The notes: generated by a model not told the origin, from the letters alone. Shown: positions 4,340-60,606, counted from the stretch's first letter. The stretch is DNA of 64,000 nt from a virus (IMGVR_UViG_3300047202_000291), one strand, 5' to 3'. Made by a program: numbers and translations.

Positions 4340-5254
4340 ATGAGGGGTTGGCATTATGAATCTCATAGGCATAGTCTTGCAGCCAAAGGCATAAAGACTT
4401 CTCAGCCAAAGCTTGCCAAGGTTCTCAGATCAGAAAATATCATCTTTGAGCCAAAATACGATGGCACGCGCATGATTCTTGAGAAGAAGGGTTCTGAGCT
4501 TACATTCATCAATAGGCGCGGTGTCGTAAAGAATGATACTTATCCTGAATTATATAATATTAATAAGAGCATCAAGGGCGATGTAATTCTCGATGGTGAA
4601 GTTGTCGTTCTAGATAAGGAGCATCCCTTTGGCAATTTTGAAAAGCTCGCAATGAGAGATAGGCTAAAAGATAAAGAGGAAATAGAGAAAAGATCCAAAA
4701 CCCTTCCATTGACTTATGTTGTTTTTGATATTCTGGAAAAAGACAGGCAAAAGGTGGCAGATTTGCCATTGTCCGAGCGGAAGAAGATTCTTGATAATGT
4801 GATTGCACAAGGAAAGAACATCAGAGAAATAGAGTTCTCAAATAAATCAAGCGAGATGTTGTCTAAAGTTAAGCAGGCAAAAGGAGAAGGAATTGTGCAA
4901 AAAGACATCAATTCTAAATATGCACCAGGTTCCACGAGGTCCTGGGAAAAATACAAGCTTCTTAAGACAAATGATGTGGCAATAATTGGTATCACTTTAG
5001 GGACGGGAAGAAGAAAAGGTTATTTTGGTGCATTAAAGATTGCAGTTAATACTCCAAAAGGTTTAAAACCTGTTGGAAAAGTCGGCACCGGATTCTCAGA
5101 CGCTGATTTAAAGGAGATAAAAAGTAGATTGGATCAAGGTGAAAAACTCGTTGCTCGAATTCAATATAGAAAAATAGGTAGTGCTGATCATTATATTGAA
5201 CCTCGTTTTCAGGCAATTCGAACAGATATTTCTCAAAGTGATACGCACGAATGA
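4340..5254 (+). CDS. ATP-dependent DNA ligase (small, viral-type) carrying the shared N-terminal GW.YESYRHSLAAKGIKT module
   Basis: Motif I EPKYDGTRM (KxDGxR), motif III VILDGEVVV, motifs V/VI GIVQKD...WEKYKLLK. SD AGGGTGAG upstream. Confidence 0.85.
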   Translation: MRGWHYESHRHSLAAKGIKTSQPKLAKVLRSENIIFEPKYDGTRMILEKKGSELTFINRRGVVKNDTYPELYNINKSIKGDVILDGEVVVLDKEHPFGNFEKLAMRDRLKDKEEIEKRSKTLPLTYVVFDILEKDRQKVADLPLSERKKILDNVIAQGKNIREIEFSNKSSEMLSKVKQAKGEGIVQKDINSKYAPGSTRSWEKYKLLKTNDVAIIGITLGTGRRKGYFGALKIAVNTPKGLKPVGKVGTGFSDADLKEIKSRLDQGEKLVARIQYRKIGSADHYIEPRFQAIRTDISQSDTHE

Positions 5255-5522: not shown

Positions 5523-6359
5523 ATGAAGGGTTGGTATTACGAATCTTATCGTCATAGTCTTGCAGCCAAAGGTATAAGGACAAATTGGGTGTTAATCAAT
5601 GAGAATCCGAGCTATAAGCGCATAAGAATCAATCGCGGATATAAAGATGTCGTCCAGGTAGATGCAAAGACTCTTAAAGAGCGTTTTGAGAAGGATAATA
5701 ATACTCCTCTTGCTTGGAAGCAATTAAGATTCGATCTTCTGAAAAACTGTGAGGAGTTTGATCAATATCCTGAGGTTGATATTCTTTCTTCTGGCAAAAT
5801 AGATTTTAATGATGGTCGTCATAGGGTTGCTGTGGCCGCAGCTCGTGGCGAGACAATCGAAATAGCAGTTAAAAATAAAGATAAATTTCTTGAGGCTTTC
5901 AGTAAGCATTCTTTTGCTGCAAAGCAGGATCCTTATGAATTTCAGGATAGCAATCAGGAGAAGATAGTTCATGCTGATTGGTGGGGTGAGCAACAATATG
6001 ATGCGAATCATAGGCCTCTTCCTTTGCTCTGGAAAGATAATGAGCTCAGATTTGTTCTTGAGGGCTCTGGCGATATTTTCAGGGAGTTCTCAATACATAA
6101 AGCGGATAACTGGTGGTTTGCTCAGAATTATATTGATGAGAAGGCAGCCCGCATTAAGAAATATCTGACTGATCCTTCTTTGGCGAATCATTCCGTCGGA
6201 GAGATAAATAAAGCAAAGCTTGCAGAGATTAGAAGGCTTTGGACAATTCAGCCTTACGAAACAGAGTTGCAGAAGAAAGCTATTGATCTGAACCTTGCGA
6301 TAATTGATAAGGACAATGAGAAGGCACTTTCAATCTTAAAGGAGGTTTCGAAAGTATGA
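5523..6359 (+). CDS. ParB-like nuclease domain protein with the shared N-terminal module
   Basis: ParB/Srx motif FNDGRHRVAVAAARGE. N-terminus MKGWYYESYRHSLAAKGIRT. Confidence 0.7.
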   Translation: MKGWYYESYRHSLAAKGIRTNWVLINENPSYKRIRINRGYKDVVQVDAKTLKERFEKDNNTPLAWKQLRFDLLKNCEEFDQYPEVDILSSGKIDFNDGRHRVAVAAARGETIEIAVKNKDKFLEAFSKHSFAAKQDPYEFQDSNQEKIVHADWWGEQQYDANHRPLPLLWKDNELRFVLEGSGDIFREFSIHKADNWWFAQNYIDEKAARIKKYLTDPSLANHSVGEINKAKLAEIRRLWTIQPYETELQKKAIDLNLAIIDKDNEKALSILKEVSKV

Positions 6360-7105
6360 ATCGTTACAAACCCCTTGGTTGGCGTTATGAATCATACAGG
6401 CATTCCTTAGCAGCCAAAGGCATCAAAACAAGGTATAAGGTGCCTCCGGCATGGAGAAATGTTAAGTATTATAAGGATAAGCCGTATGTTGTAACTGGTG
6501 TTGATAAGAAAGGTAGGGTTCAATATATTTATCCTGAATCTTTTTCTTCTGCAAGCAGTGAAAAGAAGTTTAATAGGATTGAGCGCTTTGAGAAGCAAGC
6601 ACCGGCTATAATCGATTCTGTAATGAAGGATGTTAAAAAAGGAGATAATCCCGAGGCCGAAGTTGTTTATACGATGTACAAAACTGGATTTAGGCCAGGT
6701 TCGGAGAATGATACAATGGCGGAGAAGAAGGCGTTTGGTGCATCAACTTTGCTTAAGGATCACGTTTCTGTGCGAAAAGATGATGTTAAGTTTAAATTCA
6801 TTGCTAAGAAAGGCGTTCCTGTTGAAAAAGACGTTAAGGATAAGCTTCTTGCAGATATAATTAAGAGGCGCATGCAAAGTAGACGGCTCTTTGATACCTC
6901 TGAAGGTCGTTTAAGGGCTTATTTTGATAAAAAGACCCAAGGTAGGTTCCAATTAAAGGACCTGAGGACTTTGAAGGCCTATGAGGTCGCTAAGGAGGCT
7001 GGTGGCGATAAGAAGGAGATAGCTGAACGCGTTTCAGAGGAGCTCAGCAATACGCCCGCAGTCGCGATAAGTTCTTATGTTCATCCGAGGCTGATTAATG
7101 AATAG
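6356..7105 (+). CDS. Type IB topoisomerase-like catalytic-domain protein (compact) with the shared N-terminal module
   Basis: YKTGFRPGSENDTMAEKKAFGASTLLKDHVSVRKDDVKFKFIAKKGV resembles the poxvirus-type TopoIB core (GccsLr.eHv...v.F.F.GK). C-terminal LRTLKAY is a possible catalytic Tyr. N-terminus GWRYESYRHSLAAKGIKT. Confidence 0.5.
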   Translation: MNRYKPLGWRYESYRHSLAAKGIKTRYKVPPAWRNVKYYKDKPYVVTGVDKKGRVQYIYPESFSSASSEKKFNRIERFEKQAPAIIDSVMKDVKKGDNPEAEVVYTMYKTGFRPGSENDTMAEKKAFGASTLLKDHVSVRKDDVKFKFIAKKGVPVEKDVKDKLLADIIKRRMQSRRLFDTSEGRLRAYFDKKTQGRFQLKDLRTLKAYEVAKEAGGDKKEIAERVSEELSNTPAVAISSYVHPRLINE

Positions 7106-7760
7106 ATTAAAGCCAATCGGTTGGAAATACGAAGGATATAGGCATAGTTTAGCAGCTCGAGGTATCAAAACTTCTTTTAAATTAAAATATGGAAAAGACA
7201 TTCCCGCGCAGCTTCATACTGGTTCAAAGGAATTTAAGGATATTAGCGAAGTGAAACAGCACCTCCCTTTTAAGCCAAGGGGCGGTTTTTGGACTTCGAG
7301 CTATAGGCATGATGCAGAGCCTGGATCTAAAAGTGATTGGCTTGATTGGGCATCCTCAGAAATGCCTGGGAAAGCCAGTAGTGAACACATGATTCTTAGG
7401 CCAATTCCAAATGCAAAGATATTTGAGATCGATGATGAAGAAGATATGAGATATTTGTTTGATAAATATGGAACACTTGTGAGCGGTATGCCCGATATTG
7501 ACTGGCAGAAACTCTCGCAGGATTATGATGGATTGCGTGTGACTGAGAATGCTGCACGCAAGTTTCATTTGAATTACGTTTCTATGGAGGATTTGATTAA
7601 AAAGAAGGGATTGAAAAGTCCTTTTGGAAAAGATCATTTTTTATCAGGAGTTACCTTAAATGCTTGGGACTCTGAAAGTACAATTTGGTTTAGGGATGTT
7701 TTCAAGAAGAAAACTCCCGTTGATATGAAAATAAATGCTGAAATGGATACCGGATATTGA
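7098..7760 (+). CDS. Hypothetical protein with the shared N-terminal module
   Basis: N-terminus MNRLKPIGWKYEGYRHSLAARGIKT; no other recognisable domain. Confidence 0.65.
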   Translation: MNRLKPIGWKYEGYRHSLAARGIKTSFKLKYGKDIPAQLHTGSKEFKDISEVKQHLPFKPRGGFWTSSYRHDAEPGSKSDWLDWASSEMPGKASSEHMILRPIPNAKIFEIDDEEDMRYLFDKYGTLVSGMPDIDWQKLSQDYDGLRVTENAARKFHLNYVSMEDLIKKKGLKSPFGKDHFLSGVTLNAWDSESTIWFRDVFKKKTPVDMKINAEMDTGY

Positions 7761-8809
7761 TTGTCAATACTGTCATCGACTTACTTGGGCAAGCTGGGAG
7801 AAACTAAATCACCCTCAACCTCTTTTCCTCTAATTCTTTCTCCCAGCTGTTTGATATATAGTTTCCACTTCAACAAATTATATAAACTCCAAAATCAGAT
7901 TGATTCTTATGTCGTGGACCACTAAGCAGGGCGGTCTTCTCGTCGAAGAGGACGATGAGGAGCTCTGAGCAGTAATACCGTGTGCTTAGTGCCGTGAGGC
8001 TCCCAATTTATGGATGAAGAAAAAGTTATGCAAAGGATTGAGCATCTTGTTCTTGATATTTGCGGGTGCACAAGATCCGAAGCAATTCACATACTTAAAA
8101 AAACAAGCAAAAGGTTGAAAAATATGCAGAATAAGAATGGAACCTAAGCCCCATTGTTGATTTTTATAATCAACCGTGGGAGCTATGTTAAAAAACATAA
8201 AAGTCCAATGTGACTCTAAACCCAAATTGTTTATGATTGATGCGTTTTGCATCGATTTTTCAACGACAGTGACGGTATATGTGTTTGATTGCAAGAAAAG
8301 CATCAAGCAGTATTGCCGTGATGTAGAACTTCCTTTCGAAGAGGTATTTGAAAGATGGCTTTTATTTCAATAAGTAAGTGCATAGTTTCACTCAGTCGTT
8401 AAGCCCTAAAGGGCTTCTGTGCTTTGCTTGACAAGTGAAGTGCAGTTTGGACTGAGGTGGAACCTGTGAAGCATAAGGAGAGAAATAAGGGTGCTGGCAA
8501 GGCTGGCAAGTTTTTTCTGGACAGGATTGAATCCGGGAGGATTCGAACTCCTGAAAAATGGCAGAAGTATCAGCGAAAGCATATTAAGAAGGGGAAAAAG
8601 GGCAGGCGTCCTTATCCCTGGAGAAAAAAGAAAAAGAAAACATTTAAATAAGTAAACATCCACATCGATATATTGACGGGTGCGACGGAACACTATCTAT
8701 TGTATCCTCGGGTTGTATTAGTTGTTTTATAGCATATGGATTTATAAACTGGCTATGAAGTGCAGCGAGCTGGGGCGGGGGATAGGGGATTAATGGTTAT
8801 ACATTATGT

Positions 8810-9748: not shown

Positions 9749-10042
9749 ATGATGAAATATTATGATAGATGGACATTCATGCGCATTCTTCTTCATCTAT
9801 GGTCCACTGTTAACGGCGTCACTTTATCAGATTTGCGTAGGAAGATTGGTCTTAGGGTGACGATTGAGCACATTGATTGGCTTGAGAAGCACAAGTATGT
9901 GCGCAGAGTTCAGGATATTGATGATTTTCGAAAGCTCAATATTTATTTAACAGCGAAAGCAAAGCCAGTGTGCAAGGCATTAATGGATTTGAAATATTCC
10001 TTGCCAGAGGATTTGGGAAATGAATTTTTTAGGTCGCATTAA
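9749..10042 (+). CDS. Winged-helix DNA-binding protein (MarR/ArsR-like)
   Basis: GVTLSDLRRKIGL...HIDWLEKHKYVRR helix-turn-helix/wing pattern. SD TAGGAGG. Confidence 0.55.
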   Translation: MMKYYDRWTFMRILLHLWSTVNGVTLSDLRRKIGLRVTIEHIDWLEKHKYVRRVQDIDDFRKLNIYLTAKAKPVCKALMDLKYSLPEDLGNEFFRSH

Positions 10043-10547
10043 GCTTCTTTTTGAATATTTTAAAAAGAATGATATGACTCTACGCGAGTTTGCAATAGGT
10101 ATGAACTCAGAGGTCAGCATCAAGAAGGACCTTCATATTCTTTTCTTCGATTATGATGAAGTCTCCCAAGAAGATGTCGAGGAATCTGTATTGGAATGCC
10201 AGGTTTTTTGGAATCTTTCAGACTGTTTTCTCTATAAGACTGGGAATGGGTTTCATGCATATTTTTATTATGATATAATGCCCTACACAAGAGTGCGCAT
10301 GATTATCGACTTTGCTAAATATGTTGATCCAATGTTTAAGTTCATTGGCAGATTTTATGATTATAAAACCATACGCCAGGCAGGAAAATACAAAGTGCAG
10401 GACATTTCTTTCTTGAAAATGATCCCGGGCAAGAGAACGCCCACTCTGGGAGAGGCTGAATTAGGTGATCTGAAGCGCAGGGAACGTGAATATTTATCCC
10501 AGATGCACGGCATTTTGAAGCCAGAAGTATTAAAAGACAAGAAATAA
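10020..10547 (+). CDS. Archaeo-eukaryotic primase (AEP)/primase-polymerase-like small protein
   Basis: AEP motif I ILFFDYDE (hhhDxD) and motif II TGNGFHAYF (sGxGxHxY). Lies directly upstream of the iteron-rich ORF-free region. Confidence 0.55.
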   Translation: MNFLGRIKLLFEYFKKNDMTLREFAIGMNSEVSIKKDLHILFFDYDEVSQEDVEESVLECQVFWNLSDCFLYKTGNGFHAYFYYDIMPYTRVRMIIDFAKYVDPMFKFIGRFYDYKTIRQAGKYKVQDISFLKMIPGKRTPTLGEAELGDLKRREREYLSQMHGILKPEVLKDKK

Positions 10548-10759
10548 TTACTACTAAAAAGTGGGCATAAACATAAGCATTAACATAAACATCGACGATA
10601 ATGCATATGTCTCGTGCTTATGCCAAGAACATATGCTTGTGCTGGCTTAATGCTATATTTCTTGTTTTTGGGTGTCTTGAATTAGTTGATATTTTACTAC
10701 TTTTTAGTTATAAAATATTAAATTAACTACTGATTAGGAATTAAGAAAGGTTTAATAAT

Positions 10760-11035
10760 AGGGGTTGTTTTCTACTCTTGAAATAAGAGAAGGGGGGTTT
10801 TTAGCTATGAGTATTAAAGGGGGTTTATTTTTGTATGAAAGGGGGTTTAATAGGGCGATAAATAAAGGGCTATTTCTTGCGGTAATAAGGGCGATTAATA
10901 AGGGCGATATAAGGCGATATAAAAAGGCGATTTCTTGCGACTATTTAGGGCGACTAATAAGGGCGACTATTAAAGGGTTTTCTAAAAGGTTTTCTCTTGC
11001 GATTAAAGGGGTTTCTCATTATCTAATTTTTTAAT
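10760..11035. repeat. Iteron array (GGGGGTTT, TAATAAGGGCGA[TC], TTCTTGCG families)
   Basis: Direct repeats visible in sequence. The 89-aa ORF the track calls here has a translation that simply mirrors the repeats. Confidence 0.6.
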
Positions 11036-11234
11036 CACCTTTCGGTAATAACCACCACCACCAAAAAGTTTATATACTGAATATGCTTTTCTCCTTCTCA
11101 TATCGCCTATAACGGCGGTTTTGGTATTTAACCAAAAATAAGGTTTTAACCAATTAAAAGGGCAAAACGCAACCTTTAAGGCGAAAGTTTTAAAGGTTTA
11201 GGTTAAAGTTTAGTATCCTACCTTTTTGAATACT

Positions 11235-16598: not shown

Positions 16599-17450
16599 AT
16601 GCCAGAACTAATGCCGATGCTCTTGCAGGAAGTGGAATTCTCAGAGGATGTCTTTGAGAAATATAAAGACTATGTTTGGCAAGAGAAGGAAAATGGCGTG
16701 CGGGTTATGGTTCATATAAAAGACGGGAAGATTTCTGCAGTAAGAAATAGGCGAAATAATCCTGTCTTGCATTTGTATCCAGAACTAACTGCACTTGATT
16801 TTGGGAAAATTAGTGCTATCTTGGACGGCGAACTTGTTGTCTTTAAAAATAACAAGAGTGTTTTCTATGGTGGTATTAATCAAAGGGATAAGCTTTATTC
16901 AAAGGATTCTGTGGAGAAATTTCCAGTTACATTTGTGGCTTTTGATATGATTTTTCTTAATAAGGAAATTCTATTAGGTAAGCCACATAATGAGAGGTAT
17001 GAACTTTTGAATACTGGATTTCTTTCATATACTGGAAAGCACTTTGTAATCTCTGATAATATTGCTGACCCAAAGAAATACTGGGCTGAGCACGTTATTC
17101 CGGAAGGAAGAGAAGGCTTGGTGCTTAAGGATCCCAAAAGCAAATATGAGCCAAGCCAAAGGTCTTGGTCTTGGCTGAAGCTTAAGAATTATAAGGTTGC
17201 TGAAGTGATTGTCGATAGCATTGATGTCAATGTTAAGGGCAATAAGATTACTGGAAAGGCAACTATTAATTCAGAAGTGTGTATTGTTGAGTGCCAATAC
17301 GGCGGCGTGTATAATATTCAGTTAGGCGATAAGCTTCCTGTCGAATATCTTGATATTGTCGGCGGGAAACTTATTCAGCCACATAAGCCAAGAAAATGGA
17401 AGCCAGAGGTGATTCAAAATGCCAGTGAAAATGAAAGTTCCAAAGATTGA
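16599..17450 (+). CDS. ATP-dependent DNA/RNA ligase (second copy; KxNG motif-I variant)
   Basis: Motif I KENGVR, motif III ILDGELVVF, motifs V/VI LVLKDPKSKY...WLKLK. Confidence 0.7.
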   Translation: MPELMPMLLQEVEFSEDVFEKYKDYVWQEKENGVRVMVHIKDGKISAVRNRRNNPVLHLYPELTALDFGKISAILDGELVVFKNNKSVFYGGINQRDKLYSKDSVEKFPVTFVAFDMIFLNKEILLGKPHNERYELLNTGFLSYTGKHFVISDNIADPKKYWAEHVIPEGREGLVLKDPKSKYEPSQRSWSWLKLKNYKVAEVIVDSIDVNVKGNKITGKATINSEVCIVECQYGGVYNIQLGDKLPVEYLDIVGGKLIQPHKPRKWKPEVIQNASENESSKD

Positions 17451-21406: not shown

Positions 21407-22129
21407 ATGGATGTATCTGAAATGGCAATCGGGTATGAGCTTGAGGCTGGGTTAAAGGAGAATAGCAGCGTTAGGAATGTTGCGAGGCAACTTGGATTTC
21501 GTATCGGGGACGATGGTAGCGTATGTTGTGATGATATGGATACTTGGGAAGCTGAGCTTAATTCTCCCATTTATCAGGGGCAGAAAGGCAAAAAGCTGTT
21601 ATTTTTTGAGCTAAAGAAGCCAGATGTGGATAATAAGATTTTTTCAGACTTTGAGCAGTTGTCGCATTATGTGAAGGAGATAAATGATTCTATGGGTCTT
21701 CATATTCATGTTTCTTTCAAGAATAAAAAATATTATCAGTATTTATTCTCTTTCGCTTTCGTGAAATTCTTTCAGAAGGAATATATGAGGCATTTTAAGA
21801 AGCCTGTTGAACGAAATCGAGCAAATAATGAATATTGTGAGTTCTATGATGATGGGGATATTTATGAGTTCAAGGATATAAAGGATGAGGCTCTTGGTTC
21901 TCACGATAAATGTGATGCAAGAAATCACTCGGTTAATTTTAATTCTTATCCCGTTCATAAGACAATTGAGTTCAGGATTTTTCCAGCGACTAAGCGGTCG
22001 AAAGACTTTAAGAGATATGTTAATTTTGTGACTGGTTGTGTCACCAGTTTTATTTCTGAGGTCGAGAAGGAAAAAGTCTTTGAGCAGTTGATGGAACAAA
22101 GGATGAAGAAGATTAAAGTGAATATATAA
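21407..22129 (+). CDS. Amidoligase-like enzyme, paralog of the 19108 gene
   Basis: GYELEAG, GDDGSV, AELNSP, MGLHIHVS. Confidence 0.45.
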   Translation: MDVSEMAIGYELEAGLKENSSVRNVARQLGFRIGDDGSVCCDDMDTWEAELNSPIYQGQKGKKLLFFELKKPDVDNKIFSDFEQLSHYVKEINDSMGLHIHVSFKNKKYYQYLFSFAFVKFFQKEYMRHFKKPVERNRANNEYCEFYDDGDIYEFKDIKDEALGSHDKCDARNHSVNFNSYPVHKTIEFRIFPATKRSKDFKRYVNFVTGCVTSFISEVEKEKVFEQLMEQRMKKIKVNI

Positions 22130-26069: not shown

Positions 26070-26181
26070 GATAAAGGGAACTAATCGCTATGTTGATGAA
26101 CATGGCAATATATTTATCTATGTGGATGAATGTGGCTCTAAGAAGAAGAGAAGGCATATTTTAAATGGGAACGAGGTATGA
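26053..26181 (+). CDS. Small hypothetical protein (42 aa)
   Basis: ATG ORF on the + strand. Confidence 0.4.
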   Translation: MAKATKIKGTNRYVDEHGNIFIYVDECGSKKKRRHILNGNEV

Positions 26182-26182
26182 T

Positions 26183-26782
26183 ATGAAACCGAAACTCAGT
26201 ATAAAGTATTATCAGAACGCAGACAAGAATCATCAGGATTCTTTTTGGTATGATGGAGATATTGCATTGCTTAAATATAAGAATCGAGAAGTGCTTGTAG
26301 TCGCTGCAGGCGACATAAGGATTCACAATAAAAGAGGTGAGTTGGTCTATGATTGTAAGCCCCGCAATTCAGGATTTTCATTCAAGCTTGAGCAAGATAA
26401 AGATTTGTATAAGATAGGTAATAATTATGATGATGATTTCTATTGGGAAAATAACAACTGGTTCGAGCTCTTTTATAAGAACAAAGGAGATTCTAATTGG
26501 AATGATATTTTAGGTGATGTTTATTTTGACTATGGTGTTGTAATAAAAGCGGCGAAAGATGCAATTAAGGATGATAAATGGTGGAATGAAACCTGGAATA
26601 AAGCTACCTGTCTTGAGTGTAAGAAGGAGTTTATTCAGGAAAGGGACATTCAGCTTTGTGATGTTTGCATAAAGAAGTTCAATCTTGACAAGCTCTGGAA
26701 AGACCACGACAATAATAAAATTGATGCTCTTGATTTTAATGAGTCTAAAAAGATACGAGAAAAATATAGGGTGAAGAAATAA
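26183..26782 (+). CDS. Hypothetical protein with a C-terminal CxxC...CxxC motif
   Basis: ATG after GAGGT. Confidence 0.55.
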   Translation: MKPKLSIKYYQNADKNHQDSFWYDGDIALLKYKNREVLVVAAGDIRIHNKRGELVYDCKPRNSGFSFKLEQDKDLYKIGNNYDDDFYWENNNWFELFYKNKGDSNWNDILGDVYFDYGVVIKAAKDAIKDDKWWNETWNKATCLECKKEFIQERDIQLCDVCIKKFNLDKLWKDHDNNKIDALDFNESKKIREKYRVKK

Positions 26783-27933
26783 TGGAAGTAACACACGAAC
26801 AGTTGGCTATGCTTATTGAAGAGCACCGAAGGGCAGGGCTTCCTTTGTTTGTTGATGGTGCAACAGGCATCGGTAAATCTGAAGCTGGTATTAAGAGCAG
26901 TAAGATGTATGCTGATAGAATAAGTAGGCAATGGGTTGCTTGGGTTGATCTATCTAATTTAGATAGGCATAAGTTTCTTGATGACAAGGAGATTGTGAAG
27001 GTTCATTTATTCGTTGACATAAGGACGGCTCTTTTGGAACCGACTGACCTTCTTGGTTTGCCGTTTAAGGATGAGCGTGGTTATGTTGCTTGGTTGCCGA
27101 CTCTTCTTTTCAAGATTCTGAGTTTGCCTTCAGTTTCAGCTACTATATTCTTTGACGAATTCAATTTAGGCAGTTTGATGGTCATGAAATCCAGTTATCA
27201 GCTTATTCTTGATAAGGCCATAGGGGAAGTCAAGCTTGGTAAGGATGTTACAATTCTTGCAGCAGGAAACAGGATTGAGGATCGTGCTCACGTTACAGAG
27301 TCTCCAGCTCCATTAAACAATAGGTTTAGCCATTGCACTTTGCTTTGTCCAACTCCAGATGAGTGGATTATGTATAATCTTAAATCAGAATATCCTGAGC
27401 CAAGGCTCGTTTCTTTCATTAAGTTCAAGCCTAAATATATCTTTGACTTTAAGCCTAACCAAAAGGAGAAAGCATTTCCTACTCCGAGGGCGATTCAGCA
27501 GTTGGCTATGTTGCTTAAGGGAAAAGATGAGATGAATGAGCTCGATAATATGACCATGCTCGCCCAGGCGAAATGTGGTGATGCTTTCGGTGCAGAGTTT
27601 CAATCCTTCTTGCGTCTTACGAGGAAGGTTAATGTTGATGAGATTCTAGAGCATCCTGAAAAGGTGCATGAATTTGAAAAACAGCTTGACTTGAAATATT
27701 CATTAATCTCTGGGGTTGCCGTAAGGGTGAAGCAGGACTTCAATAAGATGGAACAGGCCCTCAAAGTTATAGCCGAGCTTGAAGATGAGTATGGTGTCTT
27801 TTTATTGAGAATGATTATTGATATTTGCGGTATGAAGGTGTTGTCCGTCCTTGAGCATAGTAAGACTTGGGAAACCAGGCTCTATGATAAGTTTAAGGAC
27901 ATATTAAGCACGAGATTTGCGCAGGTGAGTTAA
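26782..27933 (+). CDS. MoxR-family AAA+ ATPase
   Basis: Walker A DGATGIGKSE, Walker B IFFDEFN, sensor AAGNR, PLNNRF arginine-finger motif. Confidence 0.8.
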   Translation: MEVTHEQLAMLIEEHRRAGLPLFVDGATGIGKSEAGIKSSKMYADRISRQWVAWVDLSNLDRHKFLDDKEIVKVHLFVDIRTALLEPTDLLGLPFKDERGYVAWLPTLLFKILSLPSVSATIFFDEFNLGSLMVMKSSYQLILDKAIGEVKLGKDVTILAAGNRIEDRAHVTESPAPLNNRFSHCTLLCPTPDEWIMYNLKSEYPEPRLVSFIKFKPKYIFDFKPNQKEKAFPTPRAIQQLAMLLKGKDEMNELDNMTMLAQAKCGDAFGAEFQSFLRLTRKVNVDEILEHPEKVHEFEKQLDLKYSLISGVAVRVKQDFNKMEQALKVIAELEDEYGVFLLRMIIDICGMKVLSVLEHSKTWETRLYDKFKDILSTRFAQVS

Positions 27934-28174
27934 ATGGATAAAAATAAGCAGTATGCTTTGAAGATAAAACGGCGTTATGAAAACATATGTGAAAAGCTCG
28001 AGCAGTTGAATGCAGAAGCATTTGAGCTTGAGCAGGAGATGATGATGTGGTGAGATTAAAATGAAATTTTATAACTTTAAAGTTGAGGGAATAAGCGAAG
28101 AAATGGTGAAATTATTGATGAAACCATGTGATGAAGAAGGATTAGAATTTATAGTGGAGGAGGTGAAATAGAAA

Positions 28175-28906
28175 ATGTCGCACTTTGTAATGGGTGTAGT
28201 TGTGCCTGGAGATGAGCCATTGACTTTTGTTGATGATGCTCTTGCTCCTTTTGACGAGGCTCTTGTTGTAAAGCCTTATAAAAGGAAGTGTTGGTGTATT
28301 GGTAAGGAGGCAGAAGCGGCAATCGCAAAAGAAGGCACCGAAATATATGGATCTTGGGATGACCTGAGGACTAAGTTCCATGCACAGGAACAGATAAGGC
28401 AGGTAAAAAAAGAACAGGAAAAACTTTATAATAAGCCAAAAGAGGCCAAAAGATATTCTGAAATCGAGGCTTCAATTCAGAAGCAATGGGAAGCTTTCAT
28501 TAAGCCAAAATTAGATTTCGAAAAAAAGTGTTTGAGAGACCATCCTGGAAAAAATTCTCCGATGAAAAATTGTGAATCTTGCAAAGGGACAGGTAAGGAG
28601 ACCGTGACCTATAATCCGAAGTCAAAATGGGATTGGTATGAAGTCGGCGGTCGTTGGGATGGCTTCTTAAGTAAGACCAATGTGACGACTGTGAAGGAAC
28701 ACCTTAAGCAGTTGAAGAAAGCCTTTGACGCTAAAGTTTGTTTCGGCTATTTGGTTGATGGTGAATGGATTGAAAAAGGAGATATGGGTTACTGGGGTAT
28801 GGTTGCTAATGAAAAAAGTGAGCAGGTAATTCGTAAGAAATTCCTTTCATTGCTTGAGGGGTTAAATCCAGATGATAGGATAGTGGCAGTTGATTGTCAC
28901 ATATAG
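28175..28906 (+). CDS. Hypothetical protein
   Basis: SD GGAGGAGGTG upstream. Confidence 0.6.
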   Translation: MSHFVMGVVVPGDEPLTFVDDALAPFDEALVVKPYKRKCWCIGKEAEAAIAKEGTEIYGSWDDLRTKFHAQEQIRQVKKEQEKLYNKPKEAKRYSEIEASIQKQWEAFIKPKLDFEKKCLRDHPGKNSPMKNCESCKGTGKETVTYNPKSKWDWYEVGGRWDGFLSKTNVTTVKEHLKQLKKAFDAKVCFGYLVDGEWIEKGDMGYWGMVANEKSEQVIRKKFLSLLEGLNPDDRIVAVDCHI

Positions 28907-28916
28907 AGGTGAAGCT

Positions 28917-29123
28917 ATGCCTAAATTGTTGTTAGTTTTGGAAGCTCCGATAAAAATCTTTAAAGAACGAGATGTCTATCAGGTTTATAGGGTTTGGGCT
29001 AATGGCGTGCTTGCTCGATACGGATACGGTAAGACCAGAAAAGAAGCCATAGAAGTTGCTAAGAAGTTATTCATAGAATCGAAAAGAGGCAAAGCCGTCT
29101 CTTGTAAATATGTGGGTGATTGA
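28917..29123 (+). CDS. Hypothetical protein
   Basis: ATG at 28917. Confidence 0.5.
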   Translation: MPKLLLVLEAPIKIFKERDVYQVYRVWANGVLARYGYGKTRKEAIEVAKKLFIESKRGKAVSCKYVGD

Positions 29124-29276
29124 ATGATAAAGCCAAAGATAAACTATGCGAAGCTGATACTTGAGATACCGATATATTGGGGTATTGATGACGATGGCAA
29201 TATATTTGATGAAGAGGAGATGACAGAGGACTTTCAGCAGTTGCTGAAAAAGTTAAATCCAAAGAAGGTGAAATAG
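29124..29276 (+). CDS. Small acidic protein (50 aa)
   Basis: ATG ORF on the + strand. Confidence 0.35.
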   Translation: MIKPKINYAKLILEIPIYWGIDDDGNIFDEEEMTEDFQQLLKKLNPKKVK

Positions 29277-29419
29277 TGCCGACTTATGTGTATGTTGAGA
29301 AGAATGGAAATGCTTCATTAATACTTAGTGCAGATGCTGAAGAAGAAGCCGAAGCTTATCTTGGGGCTGTTGTTAAGCTTCCTGTTGAGTGGCGGCTCGA
29401 ATCAGTTGAGGTGGAATAG

Positions 29420-29650
29420 ATGTGCAATCGATACGAGACAAATCTTGAATCTTGGGAATCGAGTTTGAGCGATAGGCTCGATAAGCTTCTGGATGAAGAG
29501 ACTTTGGCTTTCATCAAGGCTTGTAAAGCTGACGGTGGAGAATCTGAGCCAGATGCTTTTGTTAATCCAGATATGGAGGCGGCTCAAAAAGATACTCTTG
29601 TAGCCATACAGCGATGGTTCGACGATAAAAAGGATGTCTTGCAAGTGTGA
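29420..29650 (+). CDS. Hypothetical protein
   Basis: ATG ORF on the + strand. Confidence 0.5.
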   Translation: MCNRYETNLESWESSLSDRLDKLLDEETLAFIKACKADGGESEPDAFVNPDMEAAQKDTLVAIQRWFDDKKDVLQV

Positions 29651-29659
29651 GGTGGAAAT

Positions 29660-29932
29660 ATGAACTTTATGAATATAAATGGCTTGGCAATTAAGTTCGA
29701 TGGAGATAGGCTTACTATTGAGGGCTTAAAGAAAGGCTCAGGTAAATCTATTAAGATTGATAAGGATGGGATAATCACTGGTGATGTCACTGGCGATGTT
29801 CAGGTCATAGGTAATAATGTTATTTTGAATATCGAAGGAGATGTGACTGGGAATATTGTCGGAGCGCGTGAAGTGAAGGTTCACGGTGACGTGACTGGGA
29901 ATATCTCTGCTGGAAAAGTTAGCAAATGGTGA
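29660..29932 (+). CDS. Bactofilin-like beta-helix repeat protein
   Basis: Repeated GDVTGDV / GDVTGNI / GDVTGNIS units. Confidence 0.55.
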   Translation: MNFMNINGLAIKFDGDRLTIEGLKKGSGKSIKIDKDGIITGDVTGDVQVIGNNVILNIEGDVTGNIVGAREVKVHGDVTGNISAGKVSKW

Positions 29933-29941
29933 GGCGAAATA

Positions 29942-30208
29942 ATGTGTAAAAGAAGTTCTTGGAAAGAAGTTCGCGGCGTATTAGTAAAGAAAGTAAAGGT
30001 TGCAGGATATGGAATGGTGTTGGTAAAACTTCCTTCCAGATATATGAGCCTCCACATACCTATGGGCGATGGAGAAGACAAAAAGATGTTCGATGAATTA
30101 GTATATTATAATCAAAGACTATATAATGGAAAAGATGAACAAACAATAAAAGGAAATGTTACAAAATTCATAAAAGAATACAAAGCAAGAAAGTGTGAGG
30201 TGGTATGA
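29942..30208 (+). CDS. Hypothetical protein
   Basis: ATG ORF on the + strand. Confidence 0.5.
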   Translation: MCKRSSWKEVRGVLVKKVKVAGYGMVLVKLPSRYMSLHIPMGDGEDKKMFDELVYYNQRLYNGKDEQTIKGNVTKFIKEYKARKCEVV

Positions 30209-30444
30209 TGAGGGAAATAAAATCAAAAGGCGAATTGGCCGTGTTCATTAACACGTCGAACTGCACTCAGCCTACAAGGCTGTTTTGTTGCGATAGGGTT
30301 GAGCTTGCAGGTAACCACTTGTTCTTTTATAGCAAGGAAACTTTATTGATGAAAGTCTGGTTAAAGGATGAGCTTGTTAGGATAGATGATGCTCTTGTGC
30401 GTGTTGGAATATTTGTAAATGATTTTGGTGAGAAGCTTGGATGA
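30205..30444 (+). CDS. Hypothetical protein
   Basis: ATGA overlap with the upstream gene. Confidence 0.5.
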   Translation: MMREIKSKGELAVFINTSNCTQPTRLFCCDRVELAGNHLFFYSKETLLMKVWLKDELVRIDDALVRVGIFVNDFGEKLG

Positions 30445-30610
30445 AGAAAAATATGTCGCAGTTTTGTGGCTGTTTGAGCAAGGAGAACTTAGTGATATAA
30501 AAAAGCATATGGGTAAAACTCCTTCAAGAGAAGATTTAATTACTCTTGTTGAGGATATACTTGAGCGGTATGGTAATATGGAATATTACGATTTAGAGGT
30601 GTTAGATTGA
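30419..30610 (+). CDS. Hypothetical protein
   Basis: ATG ORF on the + strand. Confidence 0.4.
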   Translation: MILVRSLDEEKYVAVLWLFEQGELSDIKKHMGKTPSREDLITLVEDILERYGNMEYYDLEVLD

Positions 30611-30795
30611 ATTGTCCAAAATGCAGAAAGAAGTTGTCTCGGGTTAATGTCATTTCCCAATGCTGGCAGAAGGCTTGGGTTGATGATAAAGGGAAGATAA
30701 CAGAGTATGGTTCTGTCGAGGAAATTACAGACACTCTTTTTATAGAGTGTCCAGATTGCTTTGCAAAACTTGATAAGGTGGTCAAGGAAGATTGA
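30607..30795 (+). CDS. Zinc-ribbon protein
   Basis: CPKC...CPDC; TTG start. Confidence 0.5.
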   Translation: MNCPKCRKKLSRVNVISQCWQKAWVDDKGKITEYGSVEEITDTLFIECPDCFAKLDKVVKED

Positions 30796-30805
30796 GGTGG
30801 TTTTG

Positions 30806-30964
30806 ATGAAAGGAAGGCTGACTTTTGATGATGTTGTTAATAATATTCGTGAAGCATTAACCGGGATGGATGGTGATGAAGTGGCTGATGCGAATAACTA
30901 TATTTCTTCAGAGATTGAGTATGTTGAAGATAATGTTTGGAGATATAAAGTGAGAGAGGAATAA
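30806..30964 (+). CDS. Hypothetical protein
   Basis: ATG after GAGGTGG. Confidence 0.45.
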   Translation: MKGRLTFDDVVNNIREALTGMDGDEVADANNYISSEIEYVEDNVWRYKVREE

Positions 30965-30967
30965 GAA

Positions 30968-32218
30968 ATGGTTGACGAAAATCTCCTTAAAAGCATCAAG
31001 CGTTGTAAGATTGCTTTGCAAAGAGACTATCCTTTTTTCTCAGATCTGCTTTTCTTTATTACTGTGAAAGAGGGTAATGATGAAGTTCCGACAGCTAAGA
31101 TTGATATTCATGGTAACTTGACTTATAATTCGAAGTTTATGGCAGGTCTGAATGATGATGAGAAGAAAGTAGTGATTTGTCATGAAACACTTCATTCGGG
31201 TCTTTTGCATCTCGCAAGGGGTCACAGTATTGTGCAGTCCCCAGAATATTGGGAAATATATAATATTGCCGCAGATGCCGTGACTAATTATATTCTTGCC
31301 GAGAATGGCTTTATGTTTTCTAAGAAGATAACTTCAATCATTCCAGATGTATATGGGAATAATGTTCAGCTCAAGACAGAAAGTGGGACTCTACTCTATA
31401 CTGTTGAAAAGATTAAGGAGAAGACCGTTGAGAAGGTATTTCATGAATTGTGTAAGAATCTCCCGATTACTTATATTAAGGTTCATATAGTCGGTGCTAA
31501 AGGAGATGGATCCGGCATAAAGAGATTCGATATTCATGGCTTTGGCGAAGGCAAAGAGGCTTCTCAAAAAGCAGAAAAGGAATGGAAGCAAAGGCTCATA
31601 AATGCAGTTGCCCGTGCAAAAAGTATAGGTAAGCTTCCTTCAGGAATAGATCGATATGTCGATAAGATTCTTGAGCCGAAAGTTAGATGGCAGGATATTC
31701 TTTATAGGTTCATTACAGAGCAGATGCCTCATGATTATACATATAGGCGCCCTCATAAGCGTTCAGAAGTTCTTGGCTATTATGTTCCGAGTTATGTCAA
31801 GGAGATGCTCAGGGTTGCTTCATTTATAGATACCTCAGGCTCTATTTCACAGCAAGCTATTGCTGAGTTTAAGGCAGAGAATGTCGGCATAGCTCGTGCC
31901 TTTGAGTCCGTCCAGATTCACCTTGGCTATATTGATGTTCAAGTTCACGATGTTCTTGAGGTCACCAATGGCAATACAGATAAGATTGTTGATTTTGTGC
32001 CAAAAGGTGGCGGTGGAACAGACATGCGTAATGTATTTACCTGGCTCGATAGGAATCTTCCAGATGCCGAGCTTGTTGTTATTTTCACAGATGGTTACAC
32101 GCCTTGGCCTAAGCCAGAGCAAATCTGTCAAAGAAAAGTCCTTTGGCTAGTTAATACTAATGAAAAAGTTCCTTCGGGAATCGGTGAGGTGATTCGATAT
32201 GACAGTGAACAGCTTTGA
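30968..32218 (+). CDS. VWA-domain protein with an N-terminal HExxH putative metallopeptidase domain (DUF2201-like); MoxR partner
   Basis: HETLHSGLLH (HExxH). MIDAS DTSGS...GGGTD...TDGY. Confidence 0.75.
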   Translation: MVDENLLKSIKRCKIALQRDYPFFSDLLFFITVKEGNDEVPTAKIDIHGNLTYNSKFMAGLNDDEKKVVICHETLHSGLLHLARGHSIVQSPEYWEIYNIAADAVTNYILAENGFMFSKKITSIIPDVYGNNVQLKTESGTLLYTVEKIKEKTVEKVFHELCKNLPITYIKVHIVGAKGDGSGIKRFDIHGFGEGKEASQKAEKEWKQRLINAVARAKSIGKLPSGIDRYVDKILEPKVRWQDILYRFITEQMPHDYTYRRPHKRSEVLGYYVPSYVKEMLRVASFIDTSGSISQQAIAEFKAENVGIARAFESVQIHLGYIDVQVHDVLEVTNGNTDKIVDFVPKGGGGTDMRNVFTWLDRNLPDAELVVIFTDGYTPWPKPEQICQRKVLWLVNTNEKVPSGIGEVIRYDSEQL

Positions 32219-43932: not shown

Positions 43933-44358
43933 ATGGAAAAAACAAATATTAAGAAAAAAAGAAAAGAACTTGTTGTTCCAAAGCCTCCAGTCATACATTC
44001 AGGGACAACTCCTCTGAGCGTAGCAAATTCTTCGCAAATAAAATCATCTAATCGATTAACCGTGGGTCAATGGGCTTTTGTGTTTTTGATTGCAGCTTGT
44101 ATTCTATTGTTATATTTAGTGGTTACTGGCGGGTTCATTCATATGAAAGAAGCTTCGGCTAATAAGAGGGTGTCTGTTTATGGCGAGAATGGGGCGCTCA
44201 ATGAAATTTCATGTGCAGATATTTGCGATAGCCATAATTATGTTACTATTGGAGTTGCACACGGTGTCGAGACTAATCGTAATCCAGTATGCTTTTGTGT
44301 TGAGAGTATAGCATATGAAAAGAAAACAGAAAATAAAATATGGACATTTACCATATAA
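43933..44358 (+). CDS. Membrane-anchored Cys-containing protein
   Basis: ATG at 43933. Confidence 0.5.
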   Translation: MEKTNIKKKRKELVVPKPPVIHSGTTPLSVANSSQIKSSNRLTVGQWAFVFLIAACILLLYLVVTGGFIHMKEASANKRVSVYGENGALNEISCADICDSHNYVTIGVAHGVETNRNPVCFCVESIAYEKKTENKIWTFTI

Positions 44359-44371
44359 GCGAGGTGGAAAA

Positions 44372-44965
44372 ATGGAAGTAAGCAAAGGTTGGGTTGTTGG
44401 AATAACTATAACGGCCATATTGTTGTTTCTTATATTTACATCAATAGGCTGGGTCGTCGGCTTCTATAATAAGATGGTTGTAGCAAGGCAGGACATTGAT
44501 ACGCAGTTCAGCAACATAAAGACAGAGTATCAGAGAAGGGCAGATCTCTTTGTCAATCTTGTTGAAGTCGCGAAAGGTTATGCAAATTTCGAGCAGGATA
44601 CATTAGTTGAAGTTACCAAGATGCGTAATCTTAATTTCGCAGGGCTTCAAGGAACAAAGGAAGAGCAGATGGCTCAGCTTAATGGCATAGAAGGCACTTT
44701 GTCAAGGTTGTTGGTTGTGCTTGAGAAATATCCCGAATTGAAGACGGTTGAGCTTTATACTAAGCTCCACGACCAAATTCGTTCAACAGAGGATAGGATA
44801 CAGATTGCTCGTTCGGACTACAACGGCATTGTTAGGAGCTATAACATTCAGAGACAAAGATTCCCGAATGTTCTGCTTGCAAATATAATGGGCTTTGCTC
44901 AGGAGAAATACTTTGAGAACCAGCCCGGAACAGAGCAGGCACCCGTAATAAATGCAACAATTTAG
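44372..44965 (+). CDS. lemA: LemA-family protein
   Basis: N-terminal TM then YQRRADLFVNLVEVAKGYANFEQ...R. SD GAGGTGG upstream. Confidence 0.7.
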   Translation: MEVSKGWVVGITITAILLFLIFTSIGWVVGFYNKMVVARQDIDTQFSNIKTEYQRRADLFVNLVEVAKGYANFEQDTLVEVTKMRNLNFAGLQGTKEEQMAQLNGIEGTLSRLLVVLEKYPELKTVELYTKLHDQIRSTEDRIQIARSDYNGIVRSYNIQRQRFPNVLLANIMGFAQEKYFENQPGTEQAPVINATI

Positions 44966-45765: not shown

Positions 45766-46734
45766 ATGGAAGAAGATTTAAGGAAAGTAATGAAGATTGT
45801 CCTTACGGGAGGAGTGATTTTGATATTTATAATCCTGTTTTTTGGGACATTCTATACAATACAGTCGGGTCAGGAGGGTATTCTTTTGACTTTCAATAAG
45901 GCAGCGCCAGCAGGTATTCAGCCAGGGCTTCATCTGAAGTTTCCATTGATCCAGAGAATTGTGAAATTCAATGTCAGGACGCAGGCTTACGGCGCTAGCG
46001 GAACTGAAAACACATTGGAAAGTGCAGCATCATCAGATCTTCAGCAAGTGAAGATGCAGTTGGTTGTGAATTACCATTTAACTGCGGGTAGAGTTCCCGA
46101 GTTGTTCACAAACGTAGGGCCTGCTTATGAAGATACTGTTATTAGGCCAACAGTTCATGAAGCAACAAAGGCTTGTACAGCGAAATTTGCGGCAGTGGAG
46201 CTAATTAATAAGAGAGAGGACGTAAGTGTTTGTATGAGCGATTTGTTGAAGGGGAAACTAGGTATATATAATATAGTGGTTGAGCAGGTATCAATCACGG
46301 CCTTTGATTTCAGTGAGCAATTCAACAACGCTATCGAACAAAAAGTAACAGCAGAGCAGGATGCATTGAAAGCAAGGAATAAGCTTGAGCAGATTAAGAT
46401 GGAAGCTGAGCAAGTTCGTGCGGCTGCAGCAGGGCAAAGGGACGCTAAGATAGCTACTGCTGAGGGAGAGGCTCAATATATCAAGCTCATTCAGGAGCAG
46501 CTTATAAGGAGTCCTCAATACATTGAGTATGTGAAAGCAAAGCAGTGGAATGGTGTGTTGCCTCAATTTTATATGAGTGGCAGCAGTAATCCGTTGATCA
46601 TGCAGTTGCCTAGCTTGACATCGAGTAGCTTGACTGCTTCGAGCAGCGGGTATGTGCCGGTGGAGGTTCCATTGACTATGCCTGGTGAGATTATTGCACA
46701 TGGTACGAATGCGACAAATTCAACCAAAGCTTGA
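45766..46734 (+). CDS. SPFH/band-7 (prohibitin/HflK-like) membrane protein
   Basis: N-terminal TM; GQEGILLTFNK...PGLHLKFPLIQ...VQLVVNYHL; C-terminal coiled coil. Confidence 0.75.
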   Translation: MEEDLRKVMKIVLTGGVILIFIILFFGTFYTIQSGQEGILLTFNKAAPAGIQPGLHLKFPLIQRIVKFNVRTQAYGASGTENTLESAASSDLQQVKMQLVVNYHLTAGRVPELFTNVGPAYEDTVIRPTVHEATKACTAKFAAVELINKREDVSVCMSDLLKGKLGIYNIVVEQVSITAFDFSEQFNNAIEQKVTAEQDALKARNKLEQIKMEAEQVRAAAAGQRDAKIATAEGEAQYIKLIQEQLIRSPQYIEYVKAKQWNGVLPQFYMSGSSNPLIMQLPSLTSSSLTASSSGYVPVEVPLTMPGEIIAHGTNATNSTKA

Positions 46735-59356: not shown

Positions 59357-59416
59357 TTATTTGTAATCATTACAAAAAATAATGATTAATAATCATATCG
59401 CGAAAAAAAGTTATAT

Positions 59417-59499
59417 GCGCAGTTGGGGAAGCGGTCAAACCCGCTCCGCTTAGGACGGAGTGCCTAGCGCTACCACAGGTTCGAATCCTGTACTGCGCA
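59417..59499 (+). tRNA. tRNA-Leu (TAG), type II
   Basis: Acceptor GCGCAGT/ACTGCGC; anticodon arm CTCCG-CTTAGGA-CGGAG; 14-nt variable arm; T-arm ACAGG-TTCGAAT-CCTGT. Confidence 0.8.
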
Positions 59500-59501
59500 T
59501 C

Positions 59502-59617: not shown

Positions 59618-59621
59618 GTTT

Positions 59622-59706: not shown

Positions 59707-59764
59707 TATTAATATTTCAGGCTTAAAATGTTAATCAGAAATTCCTTATTAATATTAGTGATAT

Positions 59765-59836: not shown

Positions 59837-59838
59837 TT

Positions 59839-60578: not shown

Positions 60579-60606
60579 GTTATTCACACTTAACTATGAT
60601 ATGTTC

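Follow-up and report, generated by a model that had tools for sequence, protein, structure and literature searches.

A conserved gene pair of the N4 gp24/gp25 kind, encoding a MoxR-type ATPase and a zincin–VWA protein, in an uncultured large phage

The window (IMGVR_UViG_3300047202_000291, the whole 64,000-nt stretch of viral DNA that was analysed) encodes on its + strand a MoxR/AAA_5-class AAA+ ATPase and, downstream of it, a protein in which an N-terminal zincin domain is fused to a C-terminal VWA domain. The two ORFs probably constitute one conserved two-gene module, carried by an uncultured large phage and of the same kind as gp24/gp25 of phage N4. The pair is not new; it is a divergent copy of a common gene pair that N4 and many large phages carry. 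The phage in the window is itself not N4-like, having a large genome of small ORFs and a 12-tRNA array.

The two proteins and the spacer between them

The ATPase gene, a homologue of N4 gp24, lies at 26782..27933 (+) and encodes 383 aa, with an AAA+ core at approximately residues 1-190 and a C-terminal helical lid/extension at approximately 190-383. Residue conservation was read from an alignment of 40 homologues. In the Walker A/P-loop GATGIGKS (residues 26-33; 26857..26880, +), G26, G29, G31, and K32 are invariant and S33 is kept in at least 90% of sequences. Walker B, D125-E126 (27154..27159, +) in IFFDEFN (IFFDE, 121-126), and sensor 1, A161-G162-N163 (27262..27270, +) in AAGN, are invariant, and in PLNNRF (residues 177-182; 27310..27327, +) L178 and R181 are invariant, with P177 kept in at least 90%. 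P235-R236 in the lid domain (27484..27489, +) is also invariant and is sensor-2-like. By their positions, R181 would be the arginine finger and R236 sensor 2. The AlphaFold2 (AF2) model has a helix-2 insert (strands 93-96 and 102-105) after a conserved EPTDLxGxP motif, and a short pre-sensor-1 hairpin at approximately 146-151 ahead of strand 155-163, which ends in sensor 1. The window ATPase had no Pfam match at E<0.1 and no match among PDB sequences, and its class was set through its homologues and the structure model, by which it is a divergent MoxR/AAA_5-class protein, with all catalytic motifs intact as judged from the alignment.

The second gene, a homologue of N4 gp25, lies at 30968..32218 (+) and encodes 416 aa. 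DUF2201_N (PF13203; residues 14-266) scored 90.4 bits against a gathering score of 23.2, and the VWA-like DUF2201 (PF09967; residues 283-410) scored 78.1 bits against 26.4, so that PF13203 followed by PF09967 from N to C terminus, both above their gathering scores, places the protein in the DUF2201 family. In the zincin motif HETLHSGLLH (residues 72-81; 31181..31210, +), H72, H76, and H81 do not vary among 40 homologues of this protein and E73 is kept in at least 90% of them, and all four residues are invariant in a 17-sequence alignment of the N-terminal domain. The third zinc ligand is a histidine five residues past the second (HExxHxxxxH). A homologue that is 87% identical over the aligned region carries an intein between H76 and residue 77 (HExxH|xxxxH), and the placement of an intein inside the motif of so close a relative supports a functional active site. 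Some homologues of the zincin domain have weak M48, SprT-like, or M78 Pfam matches. In the VWA domain, the MIDAS motif DTSGS (residues 288-292; 31829..31843, +) has D288, S290, and S292 invariant, the GGGGT loop with the MIDAS threonine (residues 347-351; 32006..32020, +) has G347, G349, G350, and T351 invariant, and the MIDAS aspartate D375, in the TDG of FTDGY (TDGY, 374-377; 32087..32092, +), is invariant, with T374 kept in at least 90%. On these residues, the MIDAS (DxSxS...T...D) is complete, and it is set in a VWA fold of the Rossmann-like type. Literature searches found no experimental report of peptidase activity for any member of the zincin–VWA family.

These results agree with an earlier note made from the DNA, which had placed both ORFs at the same coordinates on the + strand and had described a MoxR-type ATPase (Walker A/B and PLNNRF) and a VWA protein with an N-terminal HExxH domain. 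The note had named a generic AAA protein without the MoxR sensor motifs as the outcome that would count against it; the sensor residues are invariant, and the AF2 hairpins are present. Chance rates of the motifs were obtained from composition-preserving shuffles, in which HExxH occurred in 2.3%, DxSxS in 6.4%, and Walker A in 0.015% of sequences. Because shuffles yield them, the motifs by themselves are weak evidence; it is the profile scores and the residue invariance across homologues that take the result far past chance.

The two genes are separated by 3,034 nt (27934..30967, +) holding about 10 small ORFs. One of these (28175-28906) encodes a 243-aa protein of PHROG 10079. Another (29660-29932; 90 aa), which the earlier note had called bactofilin-like, matched Pfam Bactofilin (PF04519) at E=1.8e-5, with a score of 25.3 bits that is under the 27.9-bit gathering score; its ortholog in one related locus (L001) likewise has a weak Bactofilin match. 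From the sequence, it may be called a bactofilin-like repeat, but not a member of the Bactofilin family. In tblastn against the 83 related loci (L001-L083), homologues of the spacer ORFs were found only in L001, the ATPase of which is 92% identical, and relatives with a 53%-identical ATPase have a single 81-aa ORF between the genes. The earlier note had mentioned the intervening genes alongside the pair; as they are common to one close relative only, they are lineage-specific filler outside it, and the 3-kb run appears to be an insertion specific to this lineage. Promoter and terminator scans gave results at chance level.

Linkage, distribution, and genomic neighbourhood

A VWA gene was found downstream on the same strand in 71 of the 83 related loci, usually after a gap of about 100 bp. 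Among the remaining 12, 11 run into the end of their contig and one (L041) truly has no VWA gene within 10 kb, giving linkage in 71/72 informative loci, so that the pairing proposed earlier is borne out by co-occurrence. The ATPase was present in 757 GenBank phage records and the VWA protein in 755, with matching genus counts. The operon is also found in bacterial chromosomes, on a Pseudomonadota chromosome contig and in Spirillospora. The ATPase and VWA genes thus occur nearly always together, in fixed order and strand, in phages and bacterial chromosomes. Clustered at 50% identity, the VWA family has about 34,000 representatives.

This fixed order and strand dispose of the notion that the genes are unrelated neighbours, for which the 3 kb and about 10 ORFs between them here would speak, and the companion idea that the second gene is an HNH/homing endonuclease, a label carried by PHROG 1314 and by the RefSeq entry for N4 gp25, fails because Pfam detects no HNH domain in the zincin–VWA protein; both were refuted by the co-occurrence and domain analyses. 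The label probably stems from inteins or homing endonucleases inserted into certain members, P0099 with its LAGLIDADG domain being one.

Across 75 loci, recurrent neighbours, named from visible sequence motifs rather than from profile searches, were a flap endonuclease/RNase H-like exonuclease, ThyX, a QueE-like protein, and a glutaredoxin, and no third gene reached beyond 6 of 21 lineages. The neighbours of gp24/gp25 in N4 include dCTP deaminase and rIIA/rIIB, those in Vequintavirus Bas54 (MaxBurger) include rIIA/B, helicase, primase, and DNA polymerase, and among those in the window are a phosphoesterase, ligases, and a topoisomerase IB-like protein. The pair sits amid replication and nucleotide-metabolism genes, not structural ones.

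Candidate functions

We infer that the pair has a non-structural, early or middle function, with a protein of the host or of the phage as its target. As the likeliest role we tentatively put forward counter-defence or host takeover, ahead of virion or complex maturation. In Bas54, the MoxR ATPase bas54_0063 is required against the predicted defence system DS-28, as stated in one preprint sentence, and the second gene needed is bas54_0140, not the VWA partner bas54_0055 (bioRxiv 10.1101/2025.11.20.689424). Bas54_0063 matched the family of the window ATPase at 2e-59, and bas54_0055, the zincin–VWA partner also encoded by this phage, matched at 3e-70. The Bas54 pair lies in the replication/rII region, with about 3.6 kb between its genes and in divergent orientation, unlike the same-strand pair of the window. 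PADLOC-DB protein models gave no match, at E up to 1, to the ATPase, the VWA protein, or two of the spacer ORFs.

If the pair works like CbbQ/CbbO, NorQ/NorD, RavA/ViaA, and Midasin, its ATPase would form a hexameric ring on which the VWA domain docks. The MIDAS metal could then hold a specific target protein by one of its acidic residues, ATP hydrolysis would remodel or partly unfold that protein, and the fused zincin would cut it, making the pair a candidate split, adaptor-guided, ATP-dependent protease or remodeller. A broader reading, to which we give well under an even chance, is that the gp24/gp25-type module is a widespread ATP-powered phage counter-defence protease that takes hold of a host immune or stress protein through the MIDAS, unfolds it with the ring, and cuts it with the zincin, the chromosomal copies acting likewise on cellular clients. 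If so, the window copy, both proteins of which have clade-specific inserts, would differ in the target that it recognises. Since the chromosomal copy adjoins housekeeping genes, the ancestral function cannot be anti-defence as such.

A role in virion morphogenesis, in which the pair assembles and proteolytically processes tail or head proteins, is unlikely but is the best of the alternatives. Iyer et al. 2021 (PMC7824862) suggested it for group 2.2 jumbo phages, reasoning from the Acidianus two-tailed virus, whose tails require a MoxR–VWA system to develop. A fused zincin could process structural proteins; the VWA protein of the archaeal virus, however, has no peptidase domain. [quoted passage not shown] Against morphogenesis also stand the replication and nucleotide-metabolism setting in N4, Bas54, the window, and metagenomic loci, the operons in bacterial chromosomes without phage context, and the recovery of a bas54_0063 transposon/knockout mutant by plating on derivatives of E. 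coli K-12, in which the gene is thus non-essential (bioRxiv 10.1101/2025.11.20.689424).

It is very unlikely that the pair is instead a chaperone for metal-centre or cofactor insertion, like CoxD/CoxE, NorQ/NorD, CobS/CobT, or BchI/BchD, which would activate a metalloenzyme (for instance, a phage nucleotide-metabolism enzyme) and in which the HExxH would bind metal without proteolysis. There is no consistent client enzyme, because no neighbour recurs beyond the 6 of 21 lineages given above, the conservation of the catalytic E73 indicates hydrolysis over mere metal binding, and the domain profile resembles true peptidases (minigluzincins and M48).

Comparison with known systems

The zincin-domain profile matched only minigluzincins (MJ1213/projannalysin and proabylysin) and M48/M56 peptidases among solved structures, with MJ1213 at E=1e-4 over a beta-strand and the HExxH helix; the minigluzincin match spans only about 50 residues, whereas the window domain has approximately 270 and extra helices. 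Eukaryotic CLCA proteins fuse a self-cleaving zincin domain to a VWA/MIDAS domain. The window protein follows the same domain logic, an HExxH zincin and a MIDAS VWA in one polypeptide, and in Foldseek the CLCA1 VWA was among the top matches (E=2e-5), but CLCA proteins are secreted and work without an AAA+ partner, and their peptidase domain has no detectable homology to that of the window protein. The likeness to CLCA is one of architecture only. CbbQ/CbbO and NorQ/NorD pair ATPases of the MoxR CGN subfamily with VWA adaptors, but CbbO and NorD, which are without a peptidase domain, serve known clients (Rubisco and nitric oxide reductase), whereas no client enzyme is linked to the pair in the window; the similarity in sequence is marginal, CbbQ matching at E about 4e-3 and over the P-loop alone.

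The closest counterparts are those of phages. Profiles built around the window proteins matched N4 gp24 at 4e-62 (ATPase) and gp25 at 9e-81 (VWA protein), and the window VWA protein reached gp25 directly by tblastn at 9e-20 over 98% of its length. The pair in N4 (Schitoviridae) has the same two families in the same order and strand, as early/middle genes by nucleotide-metabolism genes, as in the window. The genes adjoin in N4, with 167 bp between them, where those of the window are separated by 3,034 nt. The proteins of the window are only about 24-29% identical to homologues from cultured phages, and they differ from those of N4 by clade-specific inserts at approximately residues 47-75 of the ATPase and, beta-rich, at approximately 115-190 of the zincin domain. 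The best database matches include the jumbo phages Bacillus phage G and PA5oct and jumbo phages of Klebsiella and Erwinia. For group 2.2 jumbo phages, a MoxR–vWA chaperone–cochaperone pair with a fused metallopeptidase has been described (Iyer et al. 2021, Viruses 13:63; PMC7824862), and its exemplars (ASV44729.1 and ASV44728.2), compared by description, have the identical architecture of a MoxR ATPase and a vWA protein with an N-terminal metallopeptidase. That pair was predicted to act in virion assembly, while the gene context found here and the Bas54 data point away from a structural role.

Domains and conserved residues of the two proteins

The ATPase is encoded at 26782-27933 (+ strand, 383 aa) and the VWA protein at 30968-32218 (+ strand, 416 aa). 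The ATPase motifs quoted in an earlier note on this DNA were located at residues 26-33 (GATGIGKS), around D125-E126 (FFDEFN), and at 177-182 (PLNNRF). Direct searches with the ATPase of Pfam, NCBIfam, and PADLOC, and phmmer against PDB, returned nothing useful (no Pfam match at E < 0.1), so its class was determined from homologue alignments and a structure model. The protein matched PHROG 1297 'ATPase' (5e-59), and the distant members of its 97 database homologues carry AAA_5, AAA_3, or AAA domains with the source name 'MoxR-like ATPase'. Pfam matches among the aligned members were to AAA_5 (26/40), AAA_3 (14/40), and bpMoxR (10/40), and the family profile matched the Midasin AAA domains at 2e-11. 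Residues G26, G29, G31, K32, D125, E126, A161, G162, N163, R181, P235, and R236 are invariant, which is the set predicted for an active AAA+ enzyme. The structure model places a helix-2 beta-hairpin insert past the conserved EPTDLxGxP and also contains a pre-sensor-1 hairpin, both expected of the clade. With the sensor residues invariant and both hairpins modelled, the MoxR class proposed in the note was upheld over a generic AAA protein without the MoxR sensor motifs. An insertion at residues ~47-75 is peculiar to the window clade.

The VWA protein matched two Pfam domains, both well over the gathering threshold: DUF2201_N (PF13203, 'putative metallopeptidase domain') at residues 14-266 with 90.4 bits and DUF2201 (PF09967, 'VWA-like domain') at residues 283-410 with 78.1 bits. 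The motifs reported for it were also found (HETLHSGLLH at 72-81, DTSGS at 288-292, and TDGY at 374-377). Shuffled sequences contain short motifs of this type at rates of a few percent (HExxH in 2.3%, DxSxS in 6.4%), so the case rests on profile, conservation, and structure evidence. Across 40 aligned homologues with identity down to 27%, H72, H76, H81, D103, N107, D288, S290, S292, G347, G349, G350, T351, and D375 were invariant and E73 was kept in at least 90%; the zinc site (HExxHxxxxH) and the MIDAS (DxSxS...T...D) are therefore both complete. No solved structure spans the whole VWA protein. The profile of the N-terminal domain matched the minigluzincin MJ1213/projannalysin (E=1e-4, covering a beta-strand and the HExxH helix) and, weakly, an M48 peptidase, and some homologues gave weak M48, SprT-like, or M78 Pfam matches; on these grounds, the domain is predicted to be a zincin-type peptidase module. 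Its beta-rich insertion at ~115-190 is peculiar to the window clade.

A LAGLIDADG_3 intein-like insertion ending ...VVVHN|C interrupts one VWA-protein homologue, P0099 (584 aa; 87% identity across the aligned part). The insertion point is HExxH|xxxxH, exactly between the second histidine (H76) and residue 77, equivalent to 31193-31198 in the window. Insertion at conserved functional sites is typical of inteins, and this position is consistent with the predicted active peptidase site. Similar insertions may be present in several family representatives (P0233, P0246, P0308, and P0327) that are 670-800 aa long and give split matches. The label 'HNH endonuclease' attached to PHROG 1314 and to RefSeq N4 gp25 was rejected, as the Pfam search shows no HNH domain; intein or homing insertions may be the source of this 'HNH/homing endonuclease' mislabel.

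Linkage of the two genes and their setting in the window

In the window, the ATPase and VWA ORFs are 3,034 nt apart, with about ten small ORFs between them. To follow up the co-occurrence analysis suggested in the earlier note, 80 viral contigs and 3 metagenomic loci encoding ATPase relatives were searched with the VWA-protein profile. The VWA gene was found downstream on the same strand in 71 of the 83 loci, typically with a gap of ~100 bp, and it often overlaps the ATPase gene. Of the 12 loci that lack a VWA gene, 11 lie on contigs that stop at the ATPase gene or soon after it. This leaves L041 (IMGVR_UViG_3300048042_000013) as the only informative locus without a DUF2201 partner within 10 kb; there, the ATPase homologue (9920-11158) is followed by unrelated ORFs of 282, 395, and 390 aa, and the VWA partner may have been replaced. 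GenBank phage records contain 757 ATPase and 755 VWA-protein entries with closely matching genus counts. The two-gene operon also lies among GGDEF, NUDIX, PurT, BipA, and deformylase genes on a 741-kb Pseudomonadota contig, and the actinomycete Spirillospora has it as well. The VWA-protein profile retrieved 34,265 relatives from 1.84 billion cluster representatives, 17,027 of them at E<=1e-30. The ATPase and VWA genes are one unit, inherited together. Together with the Pfam domains and invariant residues, this linkage bears out the pairing of a MoxR ATPase with an HExxH–VWA protein.

A conserved third partner or client was sought by clustering the neighbours in 75 loci from 21 lineages, and nothing was common to more than six lineages; the module consists of the two genes alone. 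In scans of 25.5-33 kb, promoters and terminators were no more frequent than expected by chance. Relatives with an ATPase 53% identical to that of the window have one 81-aa ORF between the two genes. A long spacer (3.5 kb) is common only to the closest locus, L001 (ATPase 92% identical), where the only homologues of the spacer ORFs were found and where three of these ORFs are missing. The 3-kb spacer does not belong to the module, and the intervening bactofilin-like gene, which had been presented with the pair, is thus dropped as a component. The ORF itself (29660-29932) encodes a glycine/valine-rich repeat protein that does resemble Bactofilin (25.3 bits), but falls under the Pfam threshold of 27.9 bits. 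A large spacer also occurs in another big phage, Bacillus phage G, where gp566 and gp576 are 4.5 kb apart.

Upstream of the ATPase, a 205-aa ORF (26165-26782), conserved only in L001, ends in a TAA stop that overlaps the ATPase ATG (TAATG), which suggests that the two are translationally coupled. At its C-terminal end, the 205-aa product has a zinc-ribbon/RING-like motif, CxxC...CxxC (Prok-RING_1, E=0.03). The ATPase gene is closely followed by that of a 243-aa protein (28175-28906; PHROG 10079), which is found only in the closest relative and has a single DnaJ-like CxxCxGxG motif (CESCKGTG) and a weak match to TIGR02642 'phage_xxxx'.

The window resembles a piece of a large phage genome in its GC of ~38%, the + strand bias (nearly all ORFs), the many small ORFs, and an array of 12 tRNA genes (Leu, Cys, Met, Tyr, Asp, Glu, Pro, Gly, Arg x2, Phe, and His; 59416-62979, + strand). 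GC skew is strongly positive; it falls after 58 kb, where GC rises from ~0.38 to ~0.43, and the tRNA array coincides with both changes. When 20 kb of the window was searched by megablast against GenBank phages, nothing matched; the phage has no close cultured relative. Two paralogous ATP-dependent DNA ligase genes lie at 4340-5254 and 16599-17450 (DNA_ligase_A_M, E ~1e-31 each), and two ligase genes are also present in the related contigs L002 and L003. Other products are a 249-aa type IB topoisomerase-like protein at 6356-7105 (Pfam Topoisom_I, the eukaryotic-type topoisomerase I catalytic core, E=1.5e-12), a 1,328-aa Kelch-repeat protein at 154-4140 (Kelch_1 and a KLHDC2/KLHL20 Kelch domain), a LemA family protein at 44315-44965 (E=3e-43), and, close to the LemA gene, an SPFH/Band 7 protein at 45766-46734 (E=1e-30). 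The LemA gene of L001 is placed differently, upstream of the ATPase. An Amidoligase_2 protein (21407-22129, E=4e-11) and a transglutaminase-core-like protein (54143-54817, E=1e-4, just under the Pfam cut-off) are of types both linked to peptide ligation or modification.

Proposed mechanism and role

Characterised MoxR–VWA systems include CbbQ/CbbO, NorQ/NorD, RavA/ViaA, and Midasin, and the mechanism proposed here is drawn from them; both window proteins keep every catalytic or ligand residue. By analogy, the ATPase would form a hexameric ring, the MIDAS metal of the VWA adaptor would bind a client protein through an acidic residue, and the client would be remodelled through ATP hydrolysis. 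With cleavage added by the fused zincin, the pair would act as a split ATP-dependent protease. Because bacterial chromosomal copies exist, the basic biochemical function is not phage-specific.

Counter-defence or host modification is tentatively favoured as the role because of phage Bas54, whose ATPase homologue, bas54_0063, is linked in one sentence of a preprint to overcoming a host defence system (bioRxiv 10.1101/2025.11.20.689424). The bas54_0063 knockout was plated on E. coli K-12 derivatives, on which the gene is evidently non-essential, and the second gene named in that preprint is other than the VWA partner, bas54_0055. A role in maturation of the virion or of another complex is less probable. 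Virion assembly with proteolytic processing was proposed by Iyer et al., by analogy with Acidianus two-tailed virus (PMC7824862), but the module lies in replication/early regions and not in morphogenesis regions. The N4 genes are middle transcripts with dCTP deaminase and rIIA/rIIB as neighbours; the neighbours in Bas54 are rIIA/B, helicase, methyltransferases, primase, and DNA polymerase, those in metagenomic loci are a flap-endonuclease-like exonuclease, ThyX, a QueE-like protein, and glutaredoxin (named from visible motifs), and those in the window are the two DNA ligases, the topoisomerase IB-like protein, the amidoligase, and a phosphoesterase. Metal-centre insertion, also listed in the earlier note, is very unlikely.

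The counter-defence hypothesis is directly testable in N4 or Bas54, given the two-gene module, its replication/early setting, the strict conservation of catalytic and MIDAS residues, and a homologue linked to overcoming host defence. Searches of the literature on DUF2201, N4 gp24/gp25, and the Schitoviridae vWFA protein, together with two other phage transposon-mutagenesis preprints, turned up no functional data. Interest in the window copy is modest; the family is worth experiments, which are now feasible in these two phages.

Comparison with known systems

In Bacillus phage 0305phi8-36, deletion of MoxR (ORF66) and vWA (ORF63) is viable and gives smaller plaques (PMC3357382). Neither ORF matched either family profile at E<1, and the result is not transferable, since that MoxR–VWA pair is of a different family.

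N4 gp24 and gp25 belong to the two families (4e-62 and 9e-81 against the family profiles). A 2009 paper (PMC2784036) listed them as an 'AAA ATPase' and a 'vWFA' protein with no known function, and they are two of the 14 N4-like core genes, transcribed in N4 as middle genes (PMC4193335). In Bas54 (MZ501093.1), bas54_0063 is a full-length member of the window ATPase family (2e-59) and bas54_0055 is the zincin–VWA partner (3e-70). The MoxR gene (7235-8419, + strand) and the VWA gene (2122-3582, - strand) are divergent and ~3.6 kb apart there, whereas the pair is in tandem elsewhere, and the Bas54 VWA protein has TWGTT where the window protein has GGGGT.

The family is very abundant: at 50% identity it has ~34,000 representatives, and ~1.5% of the phage genomes in GenBank carry it. 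It is kept across very different phage lineages and is also present in bacteria. Given the earlier descriptions of N4 gp24/gp25 and by Iyer et al., the architecture and the pairing were already known. The window copy, whose identity to cultured-phage homologues does not exceed 29%, is a new and divergent member from a large phage that is uncultured, and an ordinary instance of a module that belongs to the core of N4-like phages and is frequent in jumbo phages.
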